A DNA stretch of 64,000 nt from Ostreococcus lucimarinus (GCA_000092065.1 CP000598.1); one strand, 5' to 3'; counted from the first letter of the stretch, positions 15,997 through 54,743 are shown. Notes: generated by a model not told the origin, from the letters alone. Program-made: numbers and translations.

Positions 15997-16914
15997 TCAG
16001 CAGTTGACAAAAAATAGTTTACAAAGATTTCGCGCGCGCTCGATGACTTCCATTTCGTCGTGCGTAGCGGCGAACTCCAATTCAGGCCACGTCACTAGAG
16101 GCGCGCGCTTTCCCGCGTGCGCGTTATGATTCTTTCGTCGTTCGATGGCGCCTTTGAAATCCAAGTCTTCACACCCGATGAAATGAGAACGCGCGCATAA
16201 CATTTCGAACAGTTTTGAATCGTTCGCGTCCTCAATTTTGAACCAACATTCCGCCGCTTCGTATCCAAGATTTGTGTATGTCGTCCACCACTCTAAACAT
16301 TGCACGTCGTGTCGCAAAGAGTTGAAAACGCTTATGTTGACCTCAAAATCGCGACGAATGTCCTTACCAGCCATTTCAGAGTTGAAATTTGTATCAAATT
16401 GCCACTTCGTTCCTCTGCAGCTGCGTATCACTTGGAGCGGATGTCGAACGATGAGGAAAGTATTCGTGAATACTTCGATTGATCTAATGGGAAATTGTGG
16501 TGAACTCGCCAGCCAGTTTGAGCTTCCGTTCACTCCGAATGTCTCGTGACCTATGTCTACGCCAACATCGCGAAATACTTGAGATACAAAGCCGGTTCCT
16601 GAATAGCCGGCTCCGGTTATGAGAGCTGCGGACGCGATTGCGGATTTGTCGCCCACCCGTACCGGTTTTGAACGACGTCGGAACGACGTCTCGCTGAGAG
16701 CATCTTCTGAGAGACATTGGTCTAGGCATGCGGCACAAACCGTTTCTGATGCAGTAACAAAGAACGAATCGTTCAAATTAACGTACCCCGTTAGCAATAA
16801 GGCGAGAATAGTCGACAGAAATCCACCGACCCTGGTAAAGCGCTCTCTGACTTTGACGAGCGAATACTCGTCACGAGTGACTCGAACTTCACACGCCAGC
16901 GGCGATTCGATCAT
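15997..16914 (-). CDS. type II membrane sulfotransferase-like protein
   Basis: An N-terminal TM anchor is followed by 'AALITGAGYSGTGF', a 5'-PSB-like P-loop (cf. the PKSGTT of carbohydrate sulfotransferases). 'IVRHPLQVIRS' is a 3'-PB-like RDP..vvS motif. Confidence 0.4.
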   Translation of the reverse strand: MIESPLACEVRVTRDEYSLVKVRERFTRVGGFLSTILALLLTGYVNLNDSFFVTASETVCAACLDQCLSEDALSETSFRRRSKPVRVGDKSAIASAALITGAGYSGTGFVSQVFRDVGVDIGHETFGVNGSSNWLASSPQFPIRSIEVFTNTFLIVRHPLQVIRSCRGTKWQFDTNFNSEMAGKDIRRDFEVNISVFNSLRHDVQCLEWWTTYTNLGYEAAECWFKIEDANDSKLFEMLCARSHFIGCEDLDFKGAIERRKNHNAHAGKRAPLVTWPELEFAATHDEMEVIERARNLCKLFFVNC

Positions 16915-17432
16915 TTGAGATCACCACACATTGCCATAGCCATAAAATCGTCAGTGAATGACGCACACGAACGGTTCTGTGTGACTTGCACGGCTGCACG
17001 GCCCAACAGGGGCGACGGTTCGATTGTTTTTACAGCTTCATTTATTACATACGAAAAGAGGCAGCTTTGCGTTGAGGCGACTTGAACCTAAGCTTTTCAT
17101 CTCCACTAGGCCACACCAATGTTCGCGTCGCAGTAGACGTGCAGGACAGACATTCGAATCGGTGCAACGTCGCGCTGTGAGTGGAAAGAACGACGCGGAG
17201 TGGTACGCCTCGATGAATCGTCACACTCTGTCTTATGATGCGCGGATTCACGCGCTGTCGGCGTTCATCGCACGAGTTCTGCTCGCACGCAAATGCGAAG
17301 GCGTACCAAAAGCTATTTCGTGTAGCCCTTTGACAACGACTGGAGGATGGCTGTGCGACCGTTTGGCGCTCGACGCGATTTCCAATTCTGTGTCGATCAC
17401 CCTAAGTAAATCGTAATCTTCTTGTGGGAACG

Positions 17433-18542
17433 TCAGGAATACGTGCTGCACAATTCTGTGACTTGTGCTTTTGCAGACGCGTCGTGAAGTGGATTCACCT
17501 TTAACCAATGCTTGCAGCGAGTACAGTAAATGTCGGTTTGGTTGTCGGTTGTTTTGGCGTTCCAATCTCGTTCCAATCTCGCGCCGATGTCCAGTTCTTC
17601 TGTATCTGAAATCGATTCAACGAAATCTAAGAGTAAATAACATTTGTACCCTTGAAGTCGGATGATTTCCTCCATTAACTCAATCGCTCTGTGAAGACTA
17701 AAGCTCGTGCGCTCGCGATACCACACCGCGGTGTACTCAAAAAACACATTTTTCACCGTTTTCGTTCTGAAGATGCGCATGCCGGACGACAAGACGCTCA
17801 GTTCATTACCTTCCGTATCTATGGCCAATATTTCAACGTCGTCATCATTCAAAGGGATGTCATCGAGCGCGATTGACGACACGATTTTGTGTCCAGCGCC
17901 GACGCCTTCGGCGTGTGTGTGAAACGTGCCAGAGCAAGTGTTGATCGGGGTGTCGATCGCGATCGGCACATCGCTGACGTAGTTGTTATACAACGAAACC
18001 CGTCTGACGAACTGCCGTGGGTACAAGGAAAACGTTTCCTGAATGCCAGAAACACAGAGAGGCAGAGGTTCTACGGCGTACACTCGGTACCCGCTGAGCA
18101 TGAAAATCACGCAGAAAAAGCATTCATGCGCTCCGATGTTTATTGTTGCACCTCTACCACGGGACACACTAGAAATCGCATTAGATTTGTATTCGACTGG
18201 CGTCGAAGCCAATAGATTGCGCAGAATTTGTTGAATTTTCAATTCGCCTCCGTTCACTGGTAACCACTCAAACGTGTCTTCCCTCTTCAGCACGATAGGG
18301 AGATTTACGTAACCGTACACTTCAGTTTTTACGTCCGCCTTGTCTTTGACGAGGGTATGCGTGTCTTCGACGCCGTTTAAGGTGATTTCGCTGATGTTGG
18401 TGTGGCGAGGCGTGAAAACGACCTCTTGTTCGGGGCTCGCTGACACGCTGTAGTTGACACCACGTCGGAGCAGCGTAGGAATAATAAAGAGCGAAAGGAG
18501 AAGCGTATGTTTCGCACGCACTGAAACTTGCAGACTCTGCAT
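17433..18542 (-). CDS. FkbM-family methyltransferase, type II membrane topology
   Basis: N-terminal signal anchor. 'ATINIGAHECF...RVYAVEPLP' is the FkbM DxGAN...afEP motif, and 'ILAIDTEGNELSVLSSG' matches the LKIDvEGaEl.vL.G motif. Confidence 0.55.
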   Translation of the reverse strand: MQSLQVSVRAKHTLLLSLFIIPTLLRRGVNYSVSASPEQEVVFTPRHTNISEITLNGVEDTHTLVKDKADVKTEVYGYVNLPIVLKREDTFEWLPVNGGELKIQQILRNLLASTPVEYKSNAISSVSRGRGATINIGAHECFFCVIFMLSGYRVYAVEPLPLCVSGIQETFSLYPRQFVRRVSLYNNYVSDVPIAIDTPINTCSGTFHTHAEGVGAGHKIVSSIALDDIPLNDDDVEILAIDTEGNELSVLSSGMRIFRTKTVKNVFFEYTAVWYRERTSFSLHRAIELMEEIIRLQGYKCYLLLDFVESISDTEELDIGARLERDWNAKTTDNQTDIYCTRCKHWLKVNPLHDASAKAQVTELCSTYS

Positions 18543-18839: not shown

Positions 18840-20162
18840 CTAACGCTCTCCTGGTAGTATCGTTGCGCGTTGATCTATCGCTTGCCCTGTTGGATCCCAG
18901 GAAGGGTATCTCGTCATATTCGATAAGCGCAACGCCAAGGGCGTGTAAAATTGCTCGGCGTTCTCACCGGCTTTGACGAGCTCGTCGACCCTTCTCATGC
19001 GCGCGCCATACGCGCGTACTGGATCGTTCAAACAAAACAATCGCAATTCTTGCATCGTTTGTTCACAAGTCTTATTTGTACCGCTCTTAATGTTTCCTAT
19101 GAAGTCATCGAATCCACCGTATTCCGTCGCCGTCATCATTTTTAGGATATACTGAGGCGGGAAACAATAATTCGTCGCGTGGAATCCTCGACCGAGAACG
19201 TGTTCCATGCGCCCTCGAGGAAGGAGCATTTGGTCGAGGCGATTCGCTACGGTCACACCGGGATCACCGAGCGTCCACGGCATGTTACGCGCCGGAAAGT
19301 CGGATCGAAATGCGAAATTTAGGTTTCCGTACGGAAACCAAATGCCGAAATTACCCGGCAACGCCGTTTCGCAGCGCGCTGCTTTCCAAACGTCTTCCCT
19401 CGCCGGTATCTCGTCCACGTGACCAAAAATAACGAGCGTTTTCTCGTCGTAGCGTTTGGCGAGTTCCCGCGCTATGGCGCTCTCTTTCTCTGCTTCGAAT
19501 TGGAAATTGACCCCGTTCGGCGCCGCGGCGCCGGCTTGCGCGTGTTTGAAAATTTCCACCTTGTCGCGAATCGATTCAAACCTCGCCGTCTGTAATAATG
19601 ATTCAAGCGCGTCAAAAGTGGCTTCGCCTTTGTGCGTGACGTTCGACGTCACGGCGATAAACTTATCGACGACAGGGTGTAATTCGTACAGACGAATCTC
19701 CAACGTATCGACTTCGCCGCCGCCGAAGAGGAAAACATCCACAATATTCCTAGGTTCGTCTAAAGTTTTGCCAGCGTCGCACTCGAATTGAACGCTTGAT
19801 GCGGGTTGTAATGCTATGGAGGAATCGTCATAATCTGTGGGACTCAGAGCCGACGGAAACTGCGCGCGCGTGAGCAGTTCGATCACCCGACGGTGATCGC
19901 TCGATATGCGAACCAACTCTTCACACAGATCACTCGATGGCGCTAACGGTTCATTGAACGCACGAGGCGTGTTCTCATCTGCCGTTTCGCTCACGCTCGC
20001 GTCGATCGATTCACTCTGGTCACCTACTGTGCCGTTCACCGTGACTCCTGTGATGCGAACCAACTCTCGTGGAAAGTCGAAATCGACGTAGAGGTGCACG
20101 TACGCGTAAGTCAGCGTGACGACGACGAAAGCGACGATCTGAAACGCGCGCAGCTGTCTCAT
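18840..20162 (-). CDS. glycosyltransferase family 17-like (GnT-III-like), type II membrane protein
   Basis: 'DVFLFGGGEVDTLEIRLYELHPVVDKFIAVTSNVTHKGE' matches the GT17 core (ELDLLEIRL.EL...VD.FVIVES..TFTG). It has an N-terminal TM. Confidence 0.55.
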   Translation of the reverse strand: MRQLRAFQIVAFVVVTLTYAYVHLYVDFDFPRELVRITGVTVNGTVGDQSESIDASVSETADENTPRAFNEPLAPSSDLCEELVRISSDHRRVIELLTRAQFPSALSPTDYDDSSIALQPASSVQFECDAGKTLDEPRNIVDVFLFGGGEVDTLEIRLYELHPVVDKFIAVTSNVTHKGEATFDALESLLQTARFESIRDKVEIFKHAQAGAAAPNGVNFQFEAEKESAIARELAKRYDEKTLVIFGHVDEIPAREDVWKAARCETALPGNFGIWFPYGNLNFAFRSDFPARNMPWTLGDPGVTVANRLDQMLLPRGRMEHVLGRGFHATNYCFPPQYILKMMTATEYGGFDDFIGNIKSGTNKTCEQTMQELRLFCLNDPVRAYGARMRRVDELVKAGENAEQFYTPLALRLSNMTRYPSWDPTGQAIDQRATILPGER

Positions 20163-20378: not shown

Positions 20379-21401
20379 ATGGCTGAACTATCCACGGGGA
20401 AAGTCGAAACCGGCTTGGTGAGCCCAACGATGGGCGTTCGAACCGCCTCGCTGGCGTCGCGAAAGCATCAAGCGCTGGCGCTTTTCATCTTGACGATCCA
20501 AAACACCGCCTTGGTGCTCGTGACGAAGTTTTCGTATAGAAAATCTGCGACGCCTTACGTCGTGTCCACAGTCATCGCGAGCGCCGAGCTCGTCAAACTC
20601 GCTTTGAGCTATATTTTGTTGGTCGCGTCCGACGGACAAAGCGCCGCCCGGGACGCGCTCCGCGAGGTGCCGTCCAACGCGACGCGGCTCGCGGTCCCAT
20701 CCGTGCTGTACGTAATACAAAACAACCTCCTTTTCGAGGGCGTGCGGTTGCTGAGCCCGACCGCATACATGGTGTGTTCGCAGAGCAAAATTCTCACGAG
20801 CACGATTTGTAGCGTCTTGCTCCTAGGAACGCGAATCACGCGTAAACAATATGTAGCGTTGTTGGTCCTCGCGTGTGGGATGATCATGGTACAGAACGAA
20901 GAAGGACGTGGACGCGATTTGCCGTCGGATAGAGCGCAGGTGAGACAAACTGTGCGAGGTATGGTCGTCGTGCTCACCGCCGCGTTTACGTCTGGCTTCG
21001 CGGGGGCGTATTTAGAGAAAATGTACAAAGAAGTGGGCGCTCAAAAGCGATCGGTATGGTTCCGCAACGCACAACTGGCGTGCTTTTCACTTCCAGTGGC
21101 GTTGATCGGATCAGTGTGGCGCGATGGAGAGCGCTTGCGCGCGAACGAAAGCGTGTTTCAAGGATACGACGGCGTCGTGTTGCTCGTCATCGCGCTACAA
21201 GCCGCCGGTGGTTTAGTCGTCGCGGCGGTGTTGCGATACGCGGGAAACGTGCTCAAGTGCTTCGCCGTGTCTATTTCTATATGTAATTGCGCCCTCGCGA
21301 CGACGGTGTTTGCCAACGACGGACACAACCTGAGCGTTACGGCATCTCTCGGCATAGCGCTCGTCATCGGGTCGACGTTTCTTTATTCAAACGTAGTGTA
21401 G
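20379..21401 (+). CDS. Golgi nucleotide-sugar transporter (SLC35A / UDP-Gal/CMP-Sia transporter family)
   Basis: A 340-aa polytopic protein. 'SVLYVIQNNLLFEGVRLLSPTAYMVCSQSKILTSTICSVLLLG' matches the Nuc_sug_transp signature (P..LY.lQNNL.yvAl..L.aatyQV.yQlKIlTTA). Confidence 0.85.
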   Translation: MAELSTGKVETGLVSPTMGVRTASLASRKHQALALFILTIQNTALVLVTKFSYRKSATPYVVSTVIASAELVKLALSYILLVASDGQSAARDALREVPSNATRLAVPSVLYVIQNNLLFEGVRLLSPTAYMVCSQSKILTSTICSVLLLGTRITRKQYVALLVLACGMIMVQNEEGRGRDLPSDRAQVRQTVRGMVVVLTAAFTSGFAGAYLEKMYKEVGAQKRSVWFRNAQLACFSLPVALIGSVWRDGERLRANESVFQGYDGVVLLVIALQAAGGLVVAAVLRYAGNVLKCFAVSISICNCALATTVFANDGHNLSVTASLGIALVIGSTFLYSNVV

Positions 21402-24393: not shown

Positions 24394-24567
24394 TGCGAGC
24401 TATACCTTATAAATTGTGATCAATCGGGCCTAGTGCGTCGATAAGTGATGATGATTACAAGGAGCTATCATTGATTAGTTCATTAATGAGTGTTAACTCG
24501 TCAATTAGTCATCCTAGGTTAACTAGGGGAAGCTATACTTCATATTTTACTCTTCAGATTTCTAACA
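24394..24567 (-). mobile_element. solo LTR of a copia-like retrotransposon (5'-TG...CA-3') flanked by a 5-bp target-site duplication GTGTC
   Basis: 174 bp, about 95% identical to the LTR at 55885..56059 (shared 'caatcgggcctagtgcgtcgataagtgatgatgattacaaggagctat...ttcagatttctaaca'). GTGTC is present at 24389-24393 and at 24568-24572. Confidence 0.6.
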
Positions 24568-24687: not shown

Positions 24688-25674
24688 GTGAAGCCGTGCG
24701 CAAAAGTTCGGCGGTCGTCGATAGGTCTGGCAACGTCGGTCATGCGTTGGTTGAGGGGACGTGGTGTCAAGGCGATAATGTGCGTCGCCCTTGTCGCAGG
24801 TTTCGCCAAGGTACCAGATCTGCACGTCAATAAGTATACTATGACACAGACACTGCAAGGCGACGGCTTTGGTTCACAGTTTCAAAATATCACATCTACC
24901 GCGGCTGCTCTGCACGTCAATAAGTGTACTATGACACAGACACTGCAAGGCGACGGCTTTGGTTCACAGTTTCAAAATATCATATCTACCGCGGTTTTCG
25001 CTCAAACCTTGAACAAACACTTTTGCGTGACCCCTATCGAAAGCATGGAGCACAACTACGACAATCGCTCAACGTTCCTTCGAGAAGTCAGCGAACTGAT
25101 TAATTTACCAGTACTTTCAAGTCAAGAGGACATGGACATTGAAAAGTGCGAGGTTAAAAAAGGCTGGCTGGATAGCTACATAGTTCAGGAAGCAAATCAG
25201 TTGGACGTTCGTACAAAATTGGGTAACATTCGAAAGCAGTTCTTGGGTAACAAGCGCTCGTTGTCGGAACTTCGTAAACACGCTGCCGTGCACATCAGGA
25301 GGCAGAATTCTTTTGATAATCGAAACACTGTTTCTCATGATGAAGTCGTGTGCTTTGTGATGAGGGAAATTCTCACTCAAAACAGCAATATTCAGTTTCA
25401 TGTATTTAGCCAGGGCGATATTTCGGAGTTTTGGCGCTACCAGAACGATTCAAGAATCGTCCTACGTCTCGACGAACCCATCAACGTGACGTTCACTGAA
25501 ATGGTTGTCGCCAAAATTTTGGTCACAGCCACGTCGTCATTTAGCTATGCAGCAGCACTTCTCTCAGAGGGTGAGATATGGGCCCCAAGACCGTTCTGGC
25601 ACAACTACCCTTCCTTCTGGAAGACATATCAGCTTTCTCGTACATTGTCTAACTTTGAGACATGCCTACCATGA
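24688..25674 (+). CDS. GT11-like alpha-1,2-fucosyltransferase-like glycosyltransferase carrying an internal in-frame tandem duplication
   Basis: 'LQGDGFGSQFQNIISTAVFAQ' matches GT11 motif I (GGLGNQMFQYAFA), and the C-terminal 'ATSSFSYAAALLS' matches the (S/T)TFS..A motif. There is an N-terminal TM. Confidence 0.5.
   Translation: MKPCAKVRRSSIGLATSVMRWLRGRGVKAIMCVALVAGFAKVPDLHVNKYTMTQTLQGDGFGSQFQNITSTAAALHVNKCTMTQTLQGDGFGSQFQNIISTAVFAQTLNKHFCVTPIESMEHNYDNRSTFLREVSELINLPVLSSQEDMDIEKCEVKKGWLDSYIVQEANQLDVRTKLGNIRKQFLGNKRSLSELRKHAAVHIRRQNSFDNRNTVSHDEVVCFVMREILTQNSNIQFHVFSQGDISEFWRYQNDSRIVLRLDEPINVTFTEMVVAKILVTATSSFSYAAALLSEGEIWAPRPFWHNYPSFWKTYQLSRTLSNFETCLP
24821..25000. repeat. 2 x 90-bp tandem duplication inside the GT11-like CDS (in frame, duplicating motif I)
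   Basis: 'tgcacgtcaataagt[a/g]tactatgacacagacactgcaaggcgacggctttggttcacagtttcaaaatatca[c/t]atctaccgcgg' occurs twice, at 24821 and 24911. Confidence 0.8.
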
Positions 25675-26986: not shown

Positions 26987-27958
26987 CTACAACCCCTGGC
27001 AGAGCACTTGAGCAACATGCCGCATGTGGCGAAATCGCATGTTCAAGAATAAATCGTCGGCGCAATCATGATTCAAACCTCTTGGGAGGTATTCAAAGCC
27101 CAACGAGGTGATAAAGTCGCGAAGTTCATGCTCGCCATGCTGATCAGCGTAGCCGGTAACCACTAGCTCCGGTTGAATCCAGACAACTCGTTTCGATAGC
27201 CAATGCCGAGCCCCTTTGATAATCTCTAAGTCATGGCCCTGTGCGTCAATCTTCAACATGTCGATATATTGGACGCGGCCACCTTGAACACCTAGAGACT
27301 CTGACTTTGGAACTGACACGGACCAAGGCAGAAGGGTAAAGAAATCATGAAGATTCCAAACAGGGACCTGAATTTCATTCTGCACGTCAAACTTGACCGG
27401 TTTGTGTAAGCTTGATGTCCCTGGATCACCAGCGGTCGCGTAAAATGTCTGCAAGTGTAGAGGAGAAGAGCCCATCGCCACACAAGATAAAAAGTAGCGT
27501 TTGCCAACTAAGTCCAACGGCACACAGAGGTCTCCTGTGGAGCAAGCACAACCCTTCAGTATGTTCTTGCAACTTGTCGGATTAGGCTCAAACGCAAAAA
27601 CTGTCAGCTGATCCGGATCGGAAGTGCTGCTGAACCATAAGGCGGAGTTTGGAGCGTTGTAAGACTCACCAATAGATATTTTCACACGCCGCGTATGCCT
27701 CGGCAGTGCAATTTTTCCACGCCGCAGGTGCACTGGAAGTAAGGCACGCGTGGCGTGACGAGTGCGCGAGATATCTTTGATACGTTCGGCCCCTACGAGT
27801 GGATCACTTTTTGGTTCTTCACAGCTACTCCCAAGTGAGTCGCTGTACGATTCAGTCACAGGAAGTCCGCGTGCTGACGCAAACGCAAGGAGTACGAGCG
27901 AACCCAGCGAACCGAGCAAACAGCCCGCAACCAACCTAAATTTCATACTGAATTTCAT
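26987..27958 (-). CDS. FkbM-family methyltransferase, type II membrane topology
   Basis: 'VFAFEPNP' and 'IDMLKIDAQGHDLEIIKGA' are FkbM motifs. The probable start is the Met at 27958 ('MKFSMKFRLVAGCLLGSLGSLVLLAFA', a signal anchor). The track ORF extends to 28195, but its first 79 aa look non-coding. Confidence 0.5.
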   Translation of the reverse strand: MKFSMKFRLVAGCLLGSLGSLVLLAFASARGLPVTESYSDSLGSSCEEPKSDPLVGAERIKDISRTRHATRALLPVHLRRGKIALPRHTRRVKISIGESYNAPNSALWFSSTSDPDQLTVFAFEPNPTSCKNILKGCACSTGDLCVPLDLVGKRYFLSCVAMGSSPLHLQTFYATAGDPGTSSLHKPVKFDVQNEIQVPVWNLHDFFTLLPWSVSVPKSESLGVQGGRVQYIDMLKIDAQGHDLEIIKGARHWLSKRVVWIQPELVVTGYADQHGEHELRDFITSLGFEYLPRGLNHDCADDLFLNMRFRHMRHVAQVLCQGL

Positions 27959-28694
27959 TCTGACAGGGACTCGCACGTTCTCGTGTCGCTTAAAGCCCGT
28001 ATTTTGCTCCATCTCTTCGCGGTCTAAATACTGTATAAAGTGGGTGTGTAGTACGCTCTTTTCCGTTCTTCGGCCTGGGTGTTCAGTATGCTGTTTCCGG
28101 TCTTCAGTTTCTTCATCTCGACGGCTTCGGGGCGACCACTTTGGCCGGCGACGAGTTTGCCCTGTACCATAGGACATCGTGGCCGCACACAGCATTTCGA
28201 GGCCTATATATTATAATATCTCTTGTTTTTGTCAGAGGCCTATTTCTCAGAAACATCGTGTCCTTATGCGAAAATGAGGTGGATTAAGAGATGCGAAATT
28301 CGAAAATAGAATCGGCGATTTATTCCGATAAGGGCCGTTTTTTCCCACATCGGAATGAATCGGGCCTTTGTATTCCGAAAAGATACTTGTCAAAATAGCG
28401 CGACTCGTCACGTGACGAGTTAATTTTAGGGGGTCCTATTCCGACAACGCTATTCCGGCTATCTCTTTTGAAAAACTAGCGACGCGAAATGAAGACGCGC
28501 AGTCGCCCCACTAGTGCGCGTCACTTGTTGAACTCGTTCTTCACCGAACGGGGTTTTAAAGACGTACATGTGTCCTCAGGGAACCGCATGCGGATTGTCG
28601 TCGATCTCCTTTGACCTCGGACGCTGAGGCCTCGGACCTTAAAGTCCCCGCTTCCGACGTAAAAAGTTCTGTCAGTGCGAGTTTTAGCCACGCT

Positions 28695-39364: not shown

Positions 39365-39542
39365 GCGGGCGGACGGGCGTCTCGGTCGAGCGCGTCTAGA
39401 TTTTCGCAGATTATCTCGACGACATGCTCGCGAATACCGCGCGCGCCTCGAGGGCGTTCGCGAGTGCTGCGCGCGATGTCCACGCGACGCCGCGCCTTTT
39501 GACGCCACTCGCACCGGCGCGCAGAAAACGAACGGCGGTTCG

Positions 39543-41423: not shown

Positions 41424-43796
41424 TTGATGGGACGGTTAAAAAGTATCCTCGTCCTCGATCGCCGAAGAGCGAGAACTCTGATCTCGTTAGTCTCGTTAGT
41501 CTCGCTAGTCTCGTTGTGTTTCGCCGCCCTGCTATCGGTGAACAAACATGCCGGTTGGCCGCGAAAAGGCGATCCTCCCACGCCCTCGTTGGACTCGATG
41601 AAAGATATCGAGTCAGAACGTTTCGACAGAACGGCCTATTCTGCTGAAATCAAAATCGCGATTGTCTTCGGTACGCGACCAGAGGCTGTGAAAATGGCTC
41701 CGGTGATTCAAGCGGTGGCCAGATCGTCGACTCTGAGTGCGATACTGATCTCCACGGGTCAACACAAACAGATGCTTGAGCAAGTTCTGCGCCAGTTCAG
41801 CTTGCAAGATAAAATTCAACACGAGCTAGCGCTGATGAAGCCAAATCAACAGCTCGCAGAGCTCACATCGAGCGCGGTGCGCGCGGTAGACGGCGTGCTA
41901 CGTTCGTCAAAACCAGACGCGGTGCTCGTGCAGGGCGATACAACGACAGCGTTTATCACGTCTTTGGCGGCGTTTTACTTGAAAATACCAGTTGGACACA
42001 TCGAAGCGGGTCTTCGTACGCGTGATATCTACTCACCCTTTCCCGAAGAAGTCAATAGACAGTGTATCTCAGTTATGGCGACGTATCACTTCGCACCCAC
42101 CGAACACGCGGCAAAAAATCTGTACGACGAGGGTAGACGCACGAATGTGTTTACAACCGGTAACACTGTTGTCGATGCCCTATATGCAATTTTAAAGACT
42201 GAACCGAGTGATCGAGTGATTGAGCTATCCAAAGTCGTGAAGACTGTATCCACTCTGCGCGACGTGAGGCTGTTACTTCTCACCGCTCATCGACGTGAAA
42301 ACCTTGGCGAACCCATACTCAACATCTTCACAAGCATAGAGAAGCTTCTGCAAGAATACCCTGACGTCGTCGTGATTTATCCCATTCACTTGAACCCTAT
42401 GGTGAAGCACTTAGCAGAACAGCACTTCGGCGTTGATACATTCCACAGCCTTGTACAGTCGGACCACGCGCCGCCAACGACTACGCACTTACGGCGATTG
42501 CTGATAGTACCACCTCTAGACCATGCAGATTTATTATTCATGATGAAAGAGAGTTTTTTCGTCATGACAGATTCGGGAGGTATCCAAGAGGAAGCGGTCA
42601 CTCTAGGAAAACCGGTGTTAGTGCTCAGAGACACAACAGAGAGACCAGAAGGAGTGCTCGCGGGCGCCGCAAAACTAGTTGGTCACGGTGCAGAAAGTAT
42701 ATACACCGAAGCGGCGTCTTTGCTGAAAGATCCCGATTCTTATAGATCCATGTCAGGCTCGAAGAAAACTTATGGCGATGGGAATGCTGCTGGAAACATC
42801 GTGCGCATCCTCGAGACAATGTTGAGAACGCCGCCGCCAAAGACACTTCCAGTATCGTCTTCGTTTCATAATGAACACTCCACTGCGCCGTACGAGAATG
42901 TGGTCGTCGTGACGGTTTGGAAACGTAAAACAATCACACAAGTGATGAAAATGATAAGCAAACAGACGACGCTGATGACGAAAAGAACTGCCATCGTTGT
43001 CGTTCAAAACGGGGAGCACGTGGATATTAGCGACGCGCTTCATCGATGGAATAGCTCAGAGGCTTGGTCGGGTGTTCCACCACACGTATATCACGTGCAT
43101 TCTAAAGTTGAAACGGGTTATTACGGTCGCTTTCTCGCGCCGATGTTCGTACAAACGACTCCACACGCAACGTTTATTGTTTTGGATGATGACGTTATGT
43201 TCGGATCGAGGTACTTTGAGAACATGCTGCGTGTCGTCGATGAAGGCTTTTTGGCGACGAGAAATGGTAGATTTTTGAACGAAAAGTTTTTAGAATTCGA
43301 TTGGCGAGGTCACTGGAAAGAAGGTCCGGTTGATACGTTTGACGAAGATGATGAATACGATTTTGGAGGTCATTTGTGGGCTGGGAGGATGGTCTGGTTA
43401 CAGGCCGCGTTTCGCGCGCCCCCTCCTTTACTTTACAATGCGGAAGACTTTTGGATAAGTGCTGTATTGCAAACAACCTTGGGCATCGGTACAAAGCGCG
43501 CGAGATGCCCTCGACCGGAAAATGGAGGCGATCTAGAACTTTGTGCTTGCAGCATGAAACAAGCCGGAAAGCACGAAGCCCCAAATCTTGGAAGTGACAA
43601 AATCAACGAGAGAAGATCAAAACGTCACGATGCGATGAAAACTATCGCCAAGCACTACGACTACGTGACGTTGTCTTCCAGGCGACGGTCGGCGGTTGAA
43701 GATGTTAAAAATCGCCACGAAGAAATACGTATGGAACGTTTTCACGCCGACGAGGAAACGTTGGAAATGTTTCAGCAGTGTCTTTACTGGTATTAG
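41424..43796 (+). CDS. bifunctional protein: a non-hydrolysing UDP-N-acetylglucosamine 2-epimerase (WecB-type) fused to a C-terminal GT-A-like glycosyltransferase domain (GT64-like, DxD)
   Basis: The N-terminal TM anchor is followed by 'KIAIVFGTRPEAVKMAPV', 'GHIEAGLRT', 'TDSGGIQEEAVTLGKPVLVLRDTTERPE', the canonical Epimerase_2 motifs. The extra roughly 330 aa carry 'NGYYGRFLAPMF...ATFIVLDDDVMF' (a DxD motif) and 'GGHLWAGRMVWLQAAF'. Confidence 0.75.
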   Translation: MMGRLKSILVLDRRRARTLISLVSLVSLVSLCFAALLSVNKHAGWPRKGDPPTPSLDSMKDIESERFDRTAYSAEIKIAIVFGTRPEAVKMAPVIQAVARSSTLSAILISTGQHKQMLEQVLRQFSLQDKIQHELALMKPNQQLAELTSSAVRAVDGVLRSSKPDAVLVQGDTTTAFITSLAAFYLKIPVGHIEAGLRTRDIYSPFPEEVNRQCISVMATYHFAPTEHAAKNLYDEGRRTNVFTTGNTVVDALYAILKTEPSDRVIELSKVVKTVSTLRDVRLLLLTAHRRENLGEPILNIFTSIEKLLQEYPDVVVIYPIHLNPMVKHLAEQHFGVDTFHSLVQSDHAPPTTTHLRRLLIVPPLDHADLLFMMKESFFVMTDSGGIQEEAVTLGKPVLVLRDTTERPEGVLAGAAKLVGHGAESIYTEAASLLKDPDSYRSMSGSKKTYGDGNAAGNIVRILETMLRTPPPKTLPVSSSFHNEHSTAPYENVVVVTVWKRKTITQVMKMISKQTTLMTKRTAIVVVQNGEHVDISDALHRWNSSEAWSGVPPHVYHVHSKVETGYYGRFLAPMFVQTTPHATFIVLDDDVMFGSRYFENMLRVVDEGFLATRNGRFLNEKFLEFDWRGHWKEGPVDTFDEDDEYDFGGHLWAGRMVWLQAAFRAPPPLLYNAEDFWISAVLQTTLGIGTKRARCPRPENGGDLELCACSMKQAGKHEAPNLGSDKINERRSKRHDAMKTIAKHYDYVTLSSRRRSAVEDVKNRHEEIRMERFHADEETLEMFQQCLYWY
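41483..41518. repeat. 9-bp tandem repeat (ctcgttagt)x4 inside the N-terminal anchor coding region
   Basis: It encodes (SLV)n, 'ISLVSLVSLVSLC'. Read directly from the sequence. Confidence 0.7.
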
Positions 43797-44069: not shown

Positions 44070-45116
44070 GTGGTGAGTATGGCGAAACCGAACCCCGGGC
44101 GGTTGAAAAGTTCGTTCCCGGCTGTTGCGTCACTTGTTAAGAGGAGTACTTTGGTGACTGTTTGCGCCTTCTGCGCCGCCTGTATCGCGTGCTGGTACAT
44201 TCGTACAGCTTTGAGTGAATCTCCTGTACGTGACAATAACGCAGCTCGTTCCAGCAGATTTAACTGCGGCGTCCGGCAGGCTCAGCTTCTATCGGTCGAT
44301 GGAAATCCGTGGCTTTTTCATTCGGGCGATGCGATCACTTCTACTGTTAAGGCGAAGGGCACTTTCGAGCCAGCGATAAGCAATTTGATTCGGCGTCAAC
44401 TCAGTATTGCAGATGGAATGATGGTCGATATAGGTGCAAATGTCGGTGTTATGACGAGTGTTGCGCTTTCTCTGGGCCGCGAAGTGGTCGCCGTGGAGGC
44501 ACTCCCGGATAACGCGAATCTGTTACGCTGTAGCGCAGATCACAACGGCTGGACCACGCTGTTGAAACTACATAATACGCCACTTGCTGATCCTGCGTCA
44601 AAATCCGAACGGTTTTGTGTGTGCCGGCCTATTGGAAACCCGAGCGACGGTATTCTAGTACCGTTTACTCAGTTTGCAGATCATCCTTTCTGTGGAGGTG
44701 GCCAAAGAAAAACAAAAGGAGCGACGGGGCACTGTGCCGAAGAAATGAAGTCCATAACCCTTGATGAAATACTAGGCAGTGGTTCGAATCCTATCGCCTT
44801 CATGAAAATGGATATTGAAGGAAATGAGTGTCGCGTCTTGAAAGGCGCGGCGGCGACCTTACATGGTGGCAACCCATGTACAATTTTAACTGAGTATAAT
44901 CCTGGTCTTCAGCAATATACCAATTGTACACTCATCGACATGATCGATCACATGAAGCTATTAGGTTACTTACCGCACACTTTTCAGCGACAAGGATGCT
45001 CTTTGAAGGAGCTTACATCCGTTCAGGCAGGAAAAATGAGCGCGCCAGGATCGGTGCATAATATTTGCTGGAAACCTCTTTTAGTTCCCAAACATTGCGT
45101 GAAAAAAGCGAGCTGA
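44070..45116 (+). CDS. FkbM-family methyltransferase, type II membrane topology
   Basis: 'MMVDIGANVGVMT' is the DxGAN.G motif, with 'VVAVEALP' and 'FMKMDIEGNECRVLKGA'. The signal anchor is 'LVTVCAFCAACIACWYI'. Confidence 0.7.
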   Translation: MVSMAKPNPGRLKSSFPAVASLVKRSTLVTVCAFCAACIACWYIRTALSESPVRDNNAARSSRFNCGVRQAQLLSVDGNPWLFHSGDAITSTVKAKGTFEPAISNLIRRQLSIADGMMVDIGANVGVMTSVALSLGREVVAVEALPDNANLLRCSADHNGWTTLLKLHNTPLADPASKSERFCVCRPIGNPSDGILVPFTQFADHPFCGGGQRKTKGATGHCAEEMKSITLDEILGSGSNPIAFMKMDIEGNECRVLKGAAATLHGGNPCTILTEYNPGLQQYTNCTLIDMIDHMKLLGYLPHTFQRQGCSLKELTSVQAGKMSAPGSVHNICWKPLLVPKHCVKKAS

Positions 45117-45718: not shown

Positions 45719-47044
45719 ATGAAGAAGACGTCTTCGAAGCGTCTCACAAAGTTTTCAGTCTGTCCCGTGGGACTCATCTTAACTTATGGTGTGCTGAAAC
45801 TAACGGGTCAAAGTTTCGAAGGCGATCTGCACGTCAATAGATTCAACGGTTCCGTTAGCGCCTTGTACACTGACCGTCGGGAATCTTGCTGGTTTCAGCG
45901 TTACGCTGATTTCCACGCGAACGCTGTGCGACGATCGCAGGAGGGTCAGTGCGTACCGTCCTTGATATACGTCTGCGACAAGCTCTGTGGGGGTGTAGGT
46001 GACCGAATGAGTGGTATCATGAGTGCGTTTTATCTCGCCGTCGTATTGGATAGGGCATTTTTCATTGAGTACAAGTCTCCTTTCCCGCTAACGCACACTT
46101 TGGTTCCGAAGACAGTTCGATGGGACCATAAACATAAAAGCAAGCGCGTATGCGCTTCGACGGGGTTCAAAGAGACCGAAATTTTCATGGTGGATTCCAA
46201 AGTCCCCTCAAAGGACCTCGAAAGGATCGAAGCGTTGCAAAGAGCTGGAACACCCACAATTAGACTTCACATCAACCGGTACTATGTCGGAATTTTTTTG
46301 TGGTCAGATCCTCATCAGTCTACACGAACACGATCTGATGGCGTGGCCGAATATTTTAAGGGCAAAATGACGCAATACCGTAGTTCACAGTGTGGAAGCA
46401 CGCTTGCACATGATTCGAGTGCTGCTCATACTTTTAGTTTTGCGTTTACTAACCTGTTTCACTTTGCGCCCAACGTCAAACGTCGAGCCTTAGAAATGCT
46501 TCAAGAGCTTCGTCTTCAAGACAATTCACCTTTCATCGCCGTCCACGCACGGATCGGTGGAAAGATGAAACGTTCAAATCGAGTCGTTGGTTGGATTGAC
46601 CCGAAGCGCCACGATATTGAGGATGTGACAAAGTTTTTTGACTGTGCAGAAATGAAGCGACAGCTGCTCGTGGAACACACACGCGATAACGCAAAGGATT
46701 CGTTGACCACTCATGTCGCTCCAATAGTTTTATTTTCTGATAGTGACGAACTAAAAAGTTCAGCTTTGGTGTCGGCTCGAGGCGTGCGCACTGTGCACAG
46801 TACCAATGTTTTTCACATCGACAGAAGTTGGAGCGTCTTCAAGCGGAGTATGCGAAAAGGGAATATGGATACTTTTGCTGAGCTTTATGTTCTATCTCAA
46901 GCATCGTGTATTGTTGGATCGAATAGTACTTACAGCGGCTTAGCTTCCTCGATCACGTTTCCTCCTCACCCGTGCTTCTCGTACTTTGATGATTGCACGA
47001 ACGCGCGTTGGGACTTTTGGACCGCCACTGAACGTCGTGTCTAA
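45719..47044 (+). CDS. putative fucosyltransferase-superfamily glycosyltransferase (GT11/GT23/GT65/GT68-like GT-B)
   Basis: 'CGGVGDRMSGIMSAFYLAVVLDRAFFI' resembles the GG(L/F)GN(R/Q) motif I. The C-terminal 'IVGSNSTYSGLAS' resembles the STFS motif. There is an N-terminal TM. Confidence 0.4.
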   Translation: MKKTSSKRLTKFSVCPVGLILTYGVLKLTGQSFEGDLHVNRFNGSVSALYTDRRESCWFQRYADFHANAVRRSQEGQCVPSLIYVCDKLCGGVGDRMSGIMSAFYLAVVLDRAFFIEYKSPFPLTHTLVPKTVRWDHKHKSKRVCASTGFKETEIFMVDSKVPSKDLERIEALQRAGTPTIRLHINRYYVGIFLWSDPHQSTRTRSDGVAEYFKGKMTQYRSSQCGSTLAHDSSAAHTFSFAFTNLFHFAPNVKRRALEMLQELRLQDNSPFIAVHARIGGKMKRSNRVVGWIDPKRHDIEDVTKFFDCAEMKRQLLVEHTRDNAKDSLTTHVAPIVLFSDSDELKSSALVSARGVRTVHSTNVFHIDRSWSVFKRSMRKGNMDTFAELYVLSQASCIVGSNSTYSGLASSITFPPHPCFSYFDDCTNARWDFWTATERRV

Positions 47045-47071: not shown

Positions 47072-48313
47072 CTAGACTGCGTTGGCGACTCCAAGGAGAC
47101 TGAGCGCGTGATCGAGAGAAGTACGAAAACGTTCAGGCGGTATCATAAAGTCGCGTTTCAGTTCGGTCAGACAGGCACTTTCAAAGCACTCCGCAATGGT
47201 CTTCGTAACGGCGTGCGTTTGATCGCCGAGAGCGTACGTGTGGAACAATCCGGCGTTCCGTGCGATTTTTGCGTAGAGCTCATAGTACCAAACCGTCGAA
47301 GGAAAGAGCTCAATGACTGCGCTTTCTCGTTGCATGAATATAACGTTCGTAAGATCGGCGCCATGCGATGAAATGAGCAAGTCTGTTTCTGACATGAGGG
47401 ACACTTGCTCCTTGAAAGAAAGCGTATCGAGCCGAACAGTTTTGTACCAAAGTCGACGCTCATCCAATATTTCTTGTAATTCGCCTACGTTAGTGACACG
47501 TCTCTTCTTTCTATCAATCAGTGTCACTCGCAAATCCGCTCTGTTTATTCGTTTCGGGTTGATTTTGAGATTGCCATACACTCGGTCTCGAAATAATTGA
47601 GCGTCATATGGGCCTTGAAGTAAACCTATCATAGTTCCAGCGACGACAACTCTTCTGGCACAAATAGGCGATGTCAACTCGTCACCATAAACGACCCTGA
47701 CGTCGCCAAAGATCTGCTGAGTCAAACTATCAATCCAACTTTGAGCGGGCGGCCGCTGTCTAAAAATTATCACGACAGAAGAGCTATCCGAATTCTCTAG
47801 CGTCCTGAGAGCGCTGTGAAAAAAGAACATGGCAGATTGCGCGAAATGAAAGGGATTTGCGCCGCGTTTGTCGTCTGGAGCGATCACGAACAGATTCGAC
47901 GTGTGGTTCTTATTGAGAGCGTGCGTGAAAATCACCGGGTCGACTTTTACGTCCACGTACGCCCTCAGTGGTAGCTGGTGAAACTTTGACATATCCACCG
48001 TGGGTAAGTTGGAAAGTCTACTGATTTCATGCCCGTCCGATTTGAGCGTCGTAAGCGCTGTCGAGACCAAAAGTCCACCACGTGTGACGCATACATCTTC
48101 TAACACGCAATACTCGTCGTAGTCGGGCGTCGTGAAGCAACTCGAATTAGTTCTCTGTGACGTCACGTACCTTTGAGATCTGAGCTGAGTAGACCCGTAG
48201 AAGAGCGCTGATGAGAGGAAAAACGCACGCATCATTCGTGTTCGCTCACGGCGTTTCACCGGCATCGCACTGTCCTTGACGTCGATATCTCGCTCTAGGG
48301 TGTGGAATCTCAC
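47072..48313 (-). CDS. glycosyltransferase family 61 (DUF563)-like
   Basis: 'SFKEQVSLMSETDLLISSHGADLTNVIFMQRESAVIELFP' matches the GT61/DUF563 signature (sF.EQv.l...tdvliGvHGAGLTn.lF..p...viEl.P). The N-terminus is hydrophobic. Confidence 0.7.
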   Translation of the reverse strand: MRFHTLERDIDVKDSAMPVKRRERTRMMRAFFLSSALFYGSTQLRSQRYVTSQRTNSSCFTTPDYDEYCVLEDVCVTRGGLLVSTALTTLKSDGHEISRLSNLPTVDMSKFHQLPLRAYVDVKVDPVIFTHALNKNHTSNLFVIAPDDKRGANPFHFAQSAMFFFHSALRTLENSDSSSVVIIFRQRPPAQSWIDSLTQQIFGDVRVVYGDELTSPICARRVVVAGTMIGLLQGPYDAQLFRDRVYGNLKINPKRINRADLRVTLIDRKKRRVTNVGELQEILDERRLWYKTVRLDTLSFKEQVSLMSETDLLISSHGADLTNVIFMQRESAVIELFPSTVWYYELYAKIARNAGLFHTYALGDQTHAVTKTIAECFESACLTELKRDFMIPPERFRTSLDHALSLLGVANAV

Positions 48314-48622: not shown

Positions 48623-49828
48623 ATGTCCACCGCAGCCATGAAAACCTCCGCACGTCGGCTCGGTTTGCGCGTGCTGTTGGCTTTTTGGTTGTTGAAGTTT
48701 GTATTGTCTTTGCAGTTCATAACACGCGGATGCGAGCGCTCGGTGAAGTATTTGAGCGAGATGTGGATGCGAGAAGATGCTTGGACGCACTGTCGGAACT
48801 GCTGCGGCGACGTGAGGGAACGAATGCTGAAGTTCAGTTCATTTGGCTTGGGTAAAGACGTCGCGTGTTTCACCATTCATCCGGAGGCGACTTCGCCGTC
48901 GTCGTACACCTTCGTCGCACGCAGGCGTGAACCGCTGAATCGTAGCTACTTTAAAAGTGCCCTGCGGTTTCTCCGAGACGTCGCTGTGGAACGGCGACAG
49001 AACCAAGGAGAACGAAGCGACGTGGCTCTACGACTCCTTTGGGTGATTGACGACGATGCCTCTATGCCGAGGGAGCTGAAACGGGAATTGAAATCCTTGA
49101 ACACTTTCATTCTGGCGCATTCTATCAATGTGGATTGTTTCACCGACGAATCAGTCGTGCTCGCGCCAAACTTCCACTTCATCAAGCGCGACGGGTTCAA
49201 ACCGTTGCTTCGGAATCTGCGTGAACGTGAGATTCCGTTTGATGAACGCAAATCCGACGTATTCTGGAGAGGCTCGACGTCTGGTATGTCAACAAAATGC
49301 GAAATAGAAGAACCCGCTCGCGTCGACGTGAACGAAAGGGTTACCGCGTGCGTTGAACTTCCGCGCGTGCGAGCGGTGCAATCATCCATAAATGTTCCTT
49401 GGCTCGACGTCGAGATCACGCGAAGGGTACAATCGTGTAAAGGACAAACAAATGTACGCATTAGCCCGCACGTATCGGAACAGCATTGGATCACGCACAA
49501 AGGTATCCTCGAAATCGATGGAAACGTCGACGCGTGGGGAAACCGTTGGCGCATGGAAAGCGGGAGCGTCCTGTTCCTCGTCAAGTCAAATTTCAAGCAC
49601 TATTACAGCGACAAGCTGGTAGATGGAGTACACTACATCGGAATATCTGGAGATTTGCACGATTTAGTGGAAAAAACGAAGATTGTGGCGAACACCGATG
49701 GCGAATCGCTAACGAAGTTGCGTGATATCACAGCAAATGCTCGCGCGTTGATGCAAGAATTTACGTACGAGCGCGTCGTCAAGGGCGTTTCCCATCGTCT
49801 GAATGAGCTAGCCTTAGGTATGGTATAG
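48623..49828 (+). CDS. glycosyltransferase family 90 (CAP10/POGLUT/KDELC-like)
   Basis: 'DVFWRGSTSG', 'KGILEIDGNVDAWGNRWRMESGSVLFLVKS', 'VHYIGISGDLHDLVEKTKIVANTDGESL' match the Glyco_transf_90 core (ffWRG......yKY..diDG...s.r......sgSvvlk......hY.P...d.sdL.ek). Confidence 0.75.
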   Translation: MSTAAMKTSARRLGLRVLLAFWLLKFVLSLQFITRGCERSVKYLSEMWMREDAWTHCRNCCGDVRERMLKFSSFGLGKDVACFTIHPEATSPSSYTFVARRREPLNRSYFKSALRFLRDVAVERRQNQGERSDVALRLLWVIDDDASMPRELKRELKSLNTFILAHSINVDCFTDESVVLAPNFHFIKRDGFKPLLRNLREREIPFDERKSDVFWRGSTSGMSTKCEIEEPARVDVNERVTACVELPRVRAVQSSINVPWLDVEITRRVQSCKGQTNVRISPHVSEQHWITHKGILEIDGNVDAWGNRWRMESGSVLFLVKSNFKHYYSDKLVDGVHYIGISGDLHDLVEKTKIVANTDGESLTKLRDITANARALMQEFTYERVVKGVSHRLNELALGMV

Positions 49829-53277: not shown

Positions 53278-53705
53278 GCTGAGAGCGGTTGCATCGGCTC
53301 AAAGTGGCATAGTGCTTGAAACTAATTAAGCGTCTTGTGTCTGTCAGTCATAACCACCTTTGCGAGAGGCGATTGTCCGTCATGGTCGTCGGTTCAGCCG
53401 TGCATAGGAATCATTTTAGCGATAGCAAAGGGAGCGAATGGTACACGATCAAGGTGGTCGAGCTTCTCACGCGACGCGGCCACGACATCGTGCAGCGGCT
53501 GAGCGCGCTCCCGGATGACGATTTCGTCTATCTGGCGAACGCGCGGTACTTTTTTCCCACTGGCGGCGGGTACGGAGGACAGGCGAGCATTTGCGTCGAA
53601 AGACTCGGTGGAACGTCGAGCTGGTGGCGCTGGTTTCGTCATCGAAAAGTTGAGCGCTGACTCGAAAGGACGTGCCCAGTGATTTACAAGAGTGTCTATC
53701 ACTTA

Positions 53706-54743
53706 CTACGAGTTTAGGGAATTTTCCACGCCCTCAATACCACCATCGAAGCGAATGAATGCGAATTCGACGCACATTTTGTGCAATAGTGAATACTTGA
53801 TATTCGGCTCTTTGTGGAAAATGTAAAAGTTTTCGTCGTGAAGGCGTCGGAAGAAACGTTTCGCCACCGGCTCGCGCAAAGGGTCGAGCGCGCCGCGGCC
53901 GAAAAGTTGATCGCCGACGATCAGAGAGAGCCACGATTGATGTACTTCTTTCAAGTTCGAGTCAATCGTGCCCGCGTGTATTTCCACGAGCATTTCATCG
54001 ACGCGCACGTCGGCGTCGATCCAGCTGCCGTAAGTGCTCCATTCGCAGCCTTCGCAGTCAATTTTTAATACGTCTATCGTCCTTCCTTTGTGACCGAGCG
54101 CGACGACGACGTCGGCTAAACTTTTCAAATCGCTCCCATCGGGTTCGCGCGCGCCTCCTAATCCCCATGGTTGAAAGTGGACACCGCACGGTTTGTTTCG
54201 CGGGTTCGACACCGTGTGATCGAACACGTGTATTTCGCACGCGCTCGACACGTCCCGCATGATCGCTTCTTCGAAACTAAAGTCATCGAAACTTCCGACG
54301 CTATATATCAAACCGTCCGCCCCCCGCGCGCGCAGACGGTTCGGGTCGCACAAACACTTCCCACCCTCGCCAGCTGGACCGACGCGCTCTTCGCGCGCGC
54401 ACGTCACGGCGGGCTCCACGTTGTCTTGGTACCAACCGTCGGCTCTCTGCGTACCTCCGCGCGAGACGGTGTCGAAGAGCGCGTAGCGCTTGAGCTTATC
54501 GGCGTTGATCGCGTTGATCGCGCGATCGAAGGCGGCGTCGACGTCTTTTGCGATCGGCGCCGTCGAACGCGTCGGCTTCGGTTGTGCGCACGAGTGCTGT
54601 TCTTCGACCCGAGCACGCACGGGTTTGGCGAGGTGATACCGTGTGAACAGGGTGAAACACGCCGCGAAAAGCAGCAACGCGCTGATTTCTCGCGCGCGCT
54701 TCGATCGTGCGAGGACGGAGCCGTTCGAAGCGAGACGAATCAT
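53706..54743 (-). CDS. FkbM-like methyltransferase, type II membrane topology
   Basis: The anchor is 'ALLLFAACFTLF'. 'LIYSVGSFDDFSFEEAI' and 'IDVLKIDCEGCEWSTY' match the FkbM LKIDvEG motif. Confidence 0.45.
   Translation of the reverse strand: MIRLASNGSVLARSKRAREISALLLFAACFTLFTRYHLAKPVRARVEEQHSCAQPKPTRSTAPIAKDVDAAFDRAINAINADKLKRYALFDTVSRGGTQRADGWYQDNVEPAVTCAREERVGPAGEGGKCLCDPNRLRARGADGLIYSVGSFDDFSFEEAIMRDVSSACEIHVFDHTVSNPRNKPCGVHFQPWGLGGAREPDGSDLKSLADVVVALGHKGRTIDVLKIDCEGCEWSTYGSWIDADVRVDEMLVEIHAGTIDSNLKEVHQSWLSLIVGDQLFGRGALDPLREPVAKRFFRRLHDENFYIFHKEPNIKYSLLHKMCVEFAFIRFDGGIEGVENSLNS

Follow-up and report, generated by a model that had tools for sequence, protein, structure and literature searches.

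Divergent methyltransferases and a sulfotransferase-fold protein among the glycan-synthesis genes of the Ostreococcus lucimarinus small outlier chromosome

Four methyltransferases near the end of chromosome 18

We analyzed the terminal 64 kb of chromosome 18 of Ostreococcus lucimarinus CCE9901, telomere included, and refer to this whole stretch as the window. Our subject is five genes that lie between positions 15997 and 54743 and encode four putative S-adenosylmethionine (SAM)-dependent methyltransferases and one sulfotransferase-fold protein. The window ends with the chromosome because a telomere repeat, (TTTAGGG)n, reaches its edge; the repeat is of the plant type and is perfect over 63818-64000, up to the window end. 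Chromosome 18 is the small outlier chromosome (SOC) of this species, with a published length of 149-150 kb and a guanine-plus-cytosine (GC) content of 53% (PMC3491373; PMC5082852). We measured a GC content of 0.60-0.65 at 4-16 kb and, after a drop at ~16 kb, of 0.46-0.53 at 16-50 kb; the interval holding the five genes coincides with the low-GC block. By GC profile and gene content the window carries the SOC gene set: low GC together with glycosyltransferases, methyltransferases, epimerases, and sugar transporters. It is the O. lucimarinus SOC itself, and with the other SOCs of the Mamiellales, such as the "viral immunity chromosome" 19 of O. tauri, it shares low GC, glycosyltransferases, methyltransferases, NAD epimerase/dehydratases, sugar transporters, transposon remnants, and ORFans (PMC5082852; PMC3491373). 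Roughly half of the genes on SOCs have no known function and are not collinear between species (PMC5082852; PMC3491373). For O. lucimarinus chromosome 18, Yau et al. (2016) counted 11 methyltransferases, 8 glycosyltransferases, 6 epimerase/dehydratases, and 4 sugar transporters (PMC5082852).

An earlier reading of the window, made from the DNA alone (the sequence-only reading), had proposed an expansion of five paralogous FkbM methyltransferases. All of the open reading frames (ORFs) that it listed were present at their coordinates among the six-frame ORFs of the window. We compared their products with Methyltransf_21 (PF05050) and Methyltransf_22 (PF13383), whose Pfam gathering cutoffs are 22.7 and 22.4 bits, and with NCBIfam TIGR01444, whose cutoff is 37.7 bits. 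The protein encoded on the minus strand at 17433-18542 (369 amino acids; XP_001422343.1) is an FkbM-family SAM methyltransferase that matched Methyltransf_21 at E 8.5e-17 (62.2 bits) over profile positions 2-172 of 173 and exceeded the TIGR01444 cutoff with 45.7 bits. Its motifs NIGAHE, AVEPLP, and AIDTEGNE would make up a partial SAM-motif set. A divergent family member, also on the minus strand, lies at 26987-28195 (E 7.1e-9, 36.5 bits) and matched only profile positions 25-173. It has 323 amino acids when counted from Met80, which corresponds to 27958, the start chosen in the sequence-only reading, and the ORF stays open to 28195. This protein appears to keep the motifs AFEPNP and KIDAQGHD, and its putative motif I, SIGESY, is degenerate. 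On the plus strand, at 44070-45116 with a first ATG at 44079, lies a canonical FkbM-family methyltransferase with a signal anchor (E 1.2e-12, 48.7 bits), which scored 64.4 bits against TIGR01444, above the cutoff. Its motifs DIGANVG, AVEALP, and KMDIEGNE read as canonical. It matched the FkbM structure 2py6 in the PDB weakly, and its homologues, 45-51% identical, were all metagenomic.

The product of 53706-54743 (minus strand; 345 amino acids; XP_001422352.1) is a cysteine-rich Methyltransf_22 methyltransferase. It matched PF13383 at E 2.5e-50 (171.9 bits) over profile positions 40-252 and contains the motifs YSVGSFDDFSFE and KIDCEGCE. It had no match to PF05050 at E <= 0.01 and none to TIGR01444. 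Many of its homologues additionally match PF05050. The family alignment holds six invariant cysteines, and in its cysteine richness the protein is like secreted members of the METTL24-like group to which PF13383 refers. The other three share with the FkbM family, as represented by PF05050, TIGR01444, and 2py6, the domain and, as read from sequence, putative motifs of the forms D/N-I-G-A-N/H (motif I), xxE-P/A-x-P (with the acidic residue after strand 2), and K/A-x-D-x-E-G-x-E. They differ from it in being eukaryotic with secretory N termini. The 26987 protein differs further, as no motif I can be recognized in it and its TIGR01444 score is under the cutoff. The literature on characterized FkbM sugar methyltransferases yielded nothing directly usable, and we know of no functionally characterized member of Methyltransf_22.

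We then asked how the methyltransferases are related to one another. A hidden Markov model (HMM) built from the four and searched against all six-frame ORFs recovered those four only, so there is no fifth in the window; a Pfam search of the remaining ORFs of >=100 amino acids likewise found no further methyltransferase except a C5 DNA methylase at 13238-15880. Among the four, phmmer gave zero cross-matches. The closest BLASTP pair, 17433 and 44070, was 22-24% identical over 98-192 residues (E 0.004-0.005), and every other pair had E >= 0.3. Profile-profile comparison (hhalign) of the 53706 and 44070 families gave a probability of 6%, with the resemblance confined to the KxDxEG motif (the KIDxEG segment of 53706), and for this reason we rejected 53706 as an FkbM protein. 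Moreover, each window methyltransferase has its own relatives at 45-51% identity on contigs of other organisms. By these comparisons the four are deeply divergent lineages from two Pfam families and not a local expansion. Thus, the proposal of five FkbM paralogues, 28-50% identical and all expected to match Methyltransf_21 with conserved SAM-binding residues, survived for three proteins as far as the profile is concerned: 17433, 26987, and 44070 are above threshold, 53706 belongs to Methyltransf_22, and the fifth is absent from the window. The identities did not hold up, as pairs other than the best were undetectable. The putative SAM-binding residues read as canonical in 44070 and partial in 17433, and motif I as degenerate in 26987.

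One close copy does exist elsewhere on chromosome 18. XP_001422281.1 (OSTLU_93976; 323 amino acids) clusters with the 53706-54743 protein at 90% identity, and this pair is the sole genuinely recent methyltransferase duplication.

All five proteins have near the N terminus an uncharged hydrophobic run of 13-21 residues preceded by basic residues. The run spans residues 29-45 in the sulfotransferase-like 15997 protein, 13-25 in 17433, 9-29 in 26987 (counted from Met80), 26-44 in 44070, and 20-34 in 53706. The signal anchors assigned to the five by the sequence-only reading are thus borne out as hydrophobic N-terminal segments, of which that of 17433 looks more like a signal peptide. The conserved cysteines of the Methyltransf_22 family and of the membrane-anchored relatives of the 15997 protein (median of six) would fit an oxidizing luminal compartment.

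We also found that relatives of these proteins are fused to glycan-synthesis enzymes in other organisms. A protein of 595 amino acids encoded by one continuous ORF (P0301) consists of a Methyltransf_22 domain, 50% identical to 53706-54743, followed by a domain like glycosyltransferase family 32 (GT32) that matches the product of 54901-55779 at E 1e-8. A marine metagenome protein of 1152 amino acids (P0022) carries an FkbM domain and then a sulfotransferase-like domain, and in three others (P0021, P0026, and P0140) GT2 is joined to a sulfotransferase-like domain. The window counterparts of these pairs are adjacent and on the same strand, namely, 53706/54901 for Methyltransf_22/GT32 and 15997/17433 for sulfotransferase-like/FkbM. 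For Methyltransf_22, then, the tie to GT32 is twofold: the genes are adjacent in the window, and the domains are fused in a protein found elsewhere. The fusions support the view that methyl or sulfate transfer is coupled to the assembly of glycans, but they leave the acceptors unspecified.

A sulfotransferase-fold protein of 305 amino acids

The fifth gene, on the minus strand at 15997-16914, encodes a type-II-anchored protein of 305 amino acids. We found the exact protein on 89 metagenome contigs; all its sources are metagenome derived, and it has no NCBI or UniRef accession. The gene is absent with this sequence from the NCBI annotation of the reference genome. Its neighbors have XP_ accessions, and so 15997-16914, like 31358-32602 (described below), is probably missing from the reference annotation or modeled differently there. 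The ratio of nonsynonymous to synonymous substitution rates (dN/dS) is 0.31 against a homologue of 64-69% identity. Thus, the ORF is a real gene under purifying selection. A word-indexed search found 4 clusters of relatives, and an exhaustive profile search found 797. All 10 of the relative clusters that we looked up were metagenomic, with names no better than "hypothetical protein."

We modeled the protein with AlphaFold. An alignment of 4 sequences gave a mean predicted local distance difference test (pLDDT) score of 32.7, which was unusable, and was replaced by one of 54 sequences; the resulting AF2 model scored 80.7, with values of >90 across most of the catalytic domain. In Foldseek searches this model has the sulfotransferase alpha/beta (P-loop-like) fold against the PDB, and searches against viral models agreed. 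The best viral structural match was a domain of a 1202-amino-acid Megaviridae "capsular polysaccharide synthesis protein." Identity to solved sulfotransferases is 8-15%. A reading as a P-loop kinase was rejected: there is no Walker-A lysine, and kinases rank lower with shorter alignments.

Among the 54 relatives, Sulfotransfer_3 was the most-matched Pfam family (8/54), and in a second set it was the sole family (16/50). These matches were all below threshold; the best had E 2.1e-6, and those with scores shown reached 17-21 bits against a cutoff of 27. The RxPxxxxxS region of the family aligns to the same motif in the OLS, CurM, and SgdX2 sulfotransferases.

The positions that bind phosphate in sulfotransferases are largely kept. 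The segment G101-x-G103-[Y/R]104-S105-G-T107, in the strand-loop-helix after strand 1, would correspond to the 5'-phosphosulfate loop, which reads PKxGTT or, in the TPST type, GxPRSGTT, and S105 and T107 are each kept in 53/54 relatives. In R157-H-P159-x5-S165, the residues R157, P159, and S165 are invariant (54/54). Here a strand (149-156) ends just before a helix (159-169) and the Arg-to-Ser spacing is eight residues, as in a 3'-phosphate motif. H123 is invariant and E124 is present in 53/54. Both are candidates for the catalytic base, and their position, ~20 residues beyond the loop, would resemble that of Glu99 in TPST2. At position 104, where known enzymes carry their catalytic Arg/Lys, the window protein and 35/54 relatives have Tyr, and 15/54 have Arg.

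The substitution at position 104 is coupled to others, and the family divides sharply into two types. The 35 Tyr-type members have His at position 266, a median of 88 residues before the loop, and in 28/35 an upstream hydrophobic anchor; these are the membrane-anchored relatives (P0064-P0153), with a median of six cysteines per domain. The 15 Arg-type members, short and soluble (P0003-P0059), have mostly Arg at position 266 and a median of 8 residues before the loop, and only 1/15 has an anchor. Compared with Sulfotransfer_3-type enzymes (TPST1/2, the CurM and OLS domains, and StaL), the window protein has the invariant H-E pair but falls below every curated HMM threshold, and its anchored clade has Tyr in place of the catalytic Arg.

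The sequence-only reading had called this protein sulfotransferase-like and had looked to sulfotransferase HMMs and to residues for the donor 3'-phosphoadenosine 5'-phosphosulfate (PAPS) as checks. The name stands on fold and motifs, and no match to Sulfotransfer_1 to _5 or related models appeared; of the donor-binding residues, the phosphate-binding positions are kept but the catalytic Arg/Lys position is Tyr104. There is real room, short of an even chance, for the protein to have the sulfotransferase/P-loop fold without being a PAPS-dependent sulfotransferase. With Tyr in place of Arg, it may have lost activity, serve to bind a ligand, or act with another donor as a transferase or in a kinase-like manner. 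We consider PAPS-dependent transfer the more likely account of this protein.

Neighboring glycan-synthesis genes and traces of rearrangement

The five genes are interleaved with glycosyltransferases, as the sequence-only reading had held: GT17, STELLO, GT61, GT90, and GT32-like genes lie among them, along with nucleotide-sugar enzymes and transporters. A GT17-like glycosyltransferase (XP_001422344.1) is encoded on the minus strand at 18840-20162 (Glyco_transf_17, E 8.8e-14), with a signal anchor at residues 6-24. It is followed on the plus strand by a nucleotide-sugar transporter of the SLC35A type at 20379-21401 (Nuc_sug_transp, E 3.9e-71). At 28611-30980 (plus strand), an EamA/DMT-type transporter domain (N-terminal half, EamA, E 1e-8) is fused to a STELLO-like glycosyltransferase (C-terminal half, STELLO, E 2e-20). 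A GT61 glycosyltransferase lies on the minus strand at 47072-48313 (Glyco_transf_61, E 6.2e-16) and a GT90 glycosyltransferase on the plus strand at 48623-49828 (Glyco_transf_90, E 1.3e-8). The GT32-like glycosyltransferase, with a DXD region, is encoded on the minus strand at 54901-55779 (XP_001422353.1; Gly_transf_sug, E 1.1e-8; Caps_synth, E 9.6e-6); it carries the database name "Glycosyltransferase family 32 protein" and lies 157 bp upstream of the Methyltransf_22 gene. A GT8 glycosyltransferase is located just beyond the interval that holds the five genes.

Enzymes of nucleotide-sugar synthesis occupy the middle of the island. A GDP-mannose 4,6-dehydratase-like protein of 414 amino acids, anchored, is encoded on the minus strand at 31358-32602 (GDP_Man_Dehyd, E 8.9e-63); its exact sequence occurs only in metagenome-derived sources and has no NCBI or UniRef accession. 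A UDP-glucose/GDP-mannose dehydrogenase lies on the plus strand at 32856-34277 (UDPG_MGDP_dh_N, E 9.3e-28). An NAD-dependent sugar epimerase/dehydratase at 38175-39514 (minus strand; GDP_Man_Dehyd, E 6.1e-55) is split over two frames, by a frameshift or a short intron, into an N-terminal Rossmann piece at 39134-39514 (Epimerase, E 4.7e-7) and the remainder at 38175-39137. At 41424-43796 (plus strand) lies a membrane-anchored UDP-GlcNAc 2-epimerase (Epimerase_2, E 9.4e-107), whose C-terminal domain of 310 amino acids had no Pfam match.

We observed several traces of rearrangement. Two short ORFs at 36709-37431 (minus strand) are UDP-glucose/GDP-mannose dehydrogenase fragments with 50-62% amino acid identity to the intact gene at 32856-34277, 3 kb away, and seem to be what is left of an inverted duplicate that has decayed. 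Two direct repeats (36434-36733/40072-40371 and 34476-34657/39857-40031), with identities of 83-98%, duplicate the 3' end of ORF 34977-36575 (46 amino acids, 98% identical at 39896-40210); these repeats in 34-40 kb show that segments within the island were recently rearranged. An inverted repeat of 229 nucleotides, 90% complementary (41004-41232/49603-49831), brackets an 8.4-kb block comprising the UDP-GlcNAc 2-epimerase, the 44070 FkbM gene, ORF 45719-47044, GT61, and GT90. The product of ORF 45719-47044 has only faint fucosyltransferase-family matches. At 24819-24994 an 86-nucleotide unit is tandemly repeated at a 90-nucleotide spacing with 98% identity inside ORF 24688-25674 (plus strand), whose product is anchored, has no Pfam match, and contains a duplicated 30-residue peptide from this unit. 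A Copia-type reverse transcriptase ORF at 56093-58015 (minus strand; RVT_2, E 1.2e-43) is flanked by inverted repeats of 619 nucleotides that are 100% complementary (55908-56526 and 57945-58563), and copies of 152-155 nucleotides, 98% identical, lie 31 kb off at 24413-24567.

Directly abutting the low-GC island, and itself in DNA of 65% GC, is the C5 cytosine DNA methyltransferase at 13238-15880 (plus strand), which has CXXC and Tudor-like domains. This gene is reminiscent of ostta19g00045 on the O. tauri SOC, a possible epigenetic regulator according to Yau et al. (PMC5082852).

A glycan-decoration reading and its alternatives

Glycan decoration is the most economical reading of these genes because of their location in the island, their secretory N termini, and the fusions found elsewhere. 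We propose that the low-GC block is a glycosylation island that makes variable surface glycans and that the five enzymes carry out luminal O-methylation and sulfation of these glycans; we give this reading a probability of about 0.6. The island would be a self-contained kit for variable cell-surface glycoconjugates, made up of enzymes that produce unusual nucleotide sugars, transporters that carry these into the endoplasmic reticulum and Golgi apparatus, at least seven families of membrane-anchored glycosyltransferases, and the five "decorating" enzymes (three FkbM, one Methyltransf_22, and one of the sulfotransferase fold). The methyltransferases are most likely inserted through their N-terminal signal or anchor so that the catalytic domain lies in the lumen. 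There they would methylate sugar hydroxyls on nascent glycans, with SAM as the methyl donor. The 305-amino-acid protein most likely binds PAPS through its strand-loop-helix motifs and would sulfate a glycan acceptor. The four methyltransferases were, on this reading, recruited independently, and none is a duplicate of another. The resulting glycan variation probably alters the surface recognized by prasinoviruses, as was earlier proposed for the SOC in this genus.

What we observed directly are the family and fold assignments, the hydrophobic N termini, the gene neighborhood, the domain fusions, and purifying selection. Luminal O-methylation or sulfation of glycans is plausible; the fusions strengthen this reading somewhat, and earlier publications had largely anticipated it. 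We infer the luminal location, the glycan acceptors, the use of PAPS, and the link to viruses.

Several observations weigh against it. SAM motif I of the 26987-27958 protein is degenerate, and its TIGR01444 score of 27.9 bits is below the cutoff. The 305-amino-acid protein had no Pfam match even at E = 10 and no NCBIfam match, its family profiles matched solved sulfotransferases in the PDB weakly (E 0.03-0.3) and only within the RxPxxxxxS region, Tyr104 replaces the TPST-type catalytic Arg, and His266 replaces the Arg of the soluble relatives. The location of all five proteins is assigned from hydropathy, and the 17433 run, at 13 residues, resembles a cleavable signal peptide more than an anchor. 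We identified no SAM or PAPS transporter in the window. The acceptor of the founding FkbM enzyme is a macrolide rather than a sugar. Finally, Ostreococcus goes unmentioned in a 2025 review of microalgal N-glycans.

The methyltransferases could instead act in the secretory pathway on acceptors other than glycans, for example, on lipids, small metabolites, or proteins destined for secretion. The glycosyltransferase neighborhood would then merely reflect a chromosome that collects variable, horizontally acquired genes. The FkbM family is, after all, defined by that macrolide O-methyltransferase, and Pfam describes Methyltransf_22 merely as "Methyltransferase domain." The published O. tauri tables give generic substrates (PMC5082852), and the large share of SOC genes without known function and their lack of collinearity are also in keeping with such a chromosome. 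However, this explanation does not account for the covalent fusions of a 50%-identical Methyltransf_22 domain to a GT32-like domain and of FkbM to a sulfotransferase-like domain or for the same pairs being adjacent on the same strand in the window. In addition, one FkbM-family relative of 44070 also matches the Vibrio cholerae RfbT model, and RfbT is an O-antigen sugar methyltransferase. We therefore think a non-glycan role unlikely.

It is very unlikely that some of the ORFs, above all the 305-amino-acid one and the degenerate 26987, are pseudogenes in decay on a chromosome prone to rearrangement. The window does contain debris (the UDP-glucose dehydrogenase fragments, the split epimerase, partial duplications, and the retroelement), and the 305-amino-acid ORF has no NCBI protein accession. 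However, every one of the ORFs is intact, the catalytic motifs are kept, identical proteins recur on tens of independent metagenome contigs, and dN/dS for the 305-amino-acid gene is 0.31. Least credible of all is a recent paralogous expansion of one FkbM gene on chromosome 18 at 28-50% identity, since, although three of the methyltransferases share a Pfam family and 53706-54743 has its >=90%-identical copy XP_001422281.1, no pair is detectable by phmmer, BLASTP reaches 22-24% at best, hhalign gives 6% for 53706 against 44070, and each gene is closer to proteins of other organisms.

The glycan-decoration reading must also be set in the right biological context. The sequence-only reading had drawn an analogy to algal scale and cell-wall polysaccharides. 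Ostreococcus cells are naked, lacking both scales and a wall (PMC3491373), and so that context is misplaced. The relevant published context is the role of the SOC in virus resistance (PMC5082852). In virus-resistant lines of O. tauri, the SOC FkbM gene ostta19g00560 was induced with a log2 fold change of 7.42, and glycan methylation was suggested (PMC5082852); the review of Weynberg et al. (2017) repeats this proposal (PMC5371798). A 2026 preprint reports that SOC genes annotated as sulfotransferases are overexpressed in virus-susceptible O. mediterraneus and O. tauri (bioRxiv 10.64898/2026.02.10.705097). Scans of viral contigs for the 305-amino-acid protein and the 44070 methyltransferase, the two genes that the scans covered, found no relatives. 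There is thus no sign of exchange of these two genes with prasinoviruses; the other three genes were outside the scan.

That SOC methyltransferases are probable glycan methylators is already published (Yau 2016; Weynberg 2017), and our analysis leaves the published picture unchanged. Previous work on the SOC counted methyltransferases without resolving them, whereas here we distinguish three FkbM lineages and one Methyltransf_22 and describe fusions that link them to glycosyltransferases. The 305-amino-acid gene is absent both from the O. lucimarinus annotation and from a 2015 survey of algal carbohydrate sulfotransferases, which placed the O. lucimarinus genes on chromosomes 7 and 14 only. 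This gene, its mostly metagenomic Tyr-clade family, and the pairings of methyltransferase with GT32 and of FkbM with a sulfotransferase-like domain are modestly new.

A bolder suggestion, which we hold to be speculative and rather improbable, is that the 305-amino-acid protein represents an unnamed, largely metagenome-only clade of anchored sulfotransferase-fold enzymes in which Tyr for the catalytic Arg/Lys and His for Arg close to the C terminus mark a changed mechanism or donor, that the clade is tied in function to FkbM and GT2 enzymes through fusion and adjacency, and that in Ostreococcus it sets a glycan determinant for prasinoviruses. If true, such a role at the cell surface would agree with the 2026 preprint, in which SOC sulfotransferase genes are a mark of susceptible lines. 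The analysis yields testable candidates for glycan decoration in the form of four unrelated methyltransferase lineages, one unannotated sulfotransferase-fold gene, and enzyme pairs that are fused elsewhere, and these candidates lie on the SOC, which is the best current candidate for the switching between virus susceptibility and resistance in these abundant marine algae.

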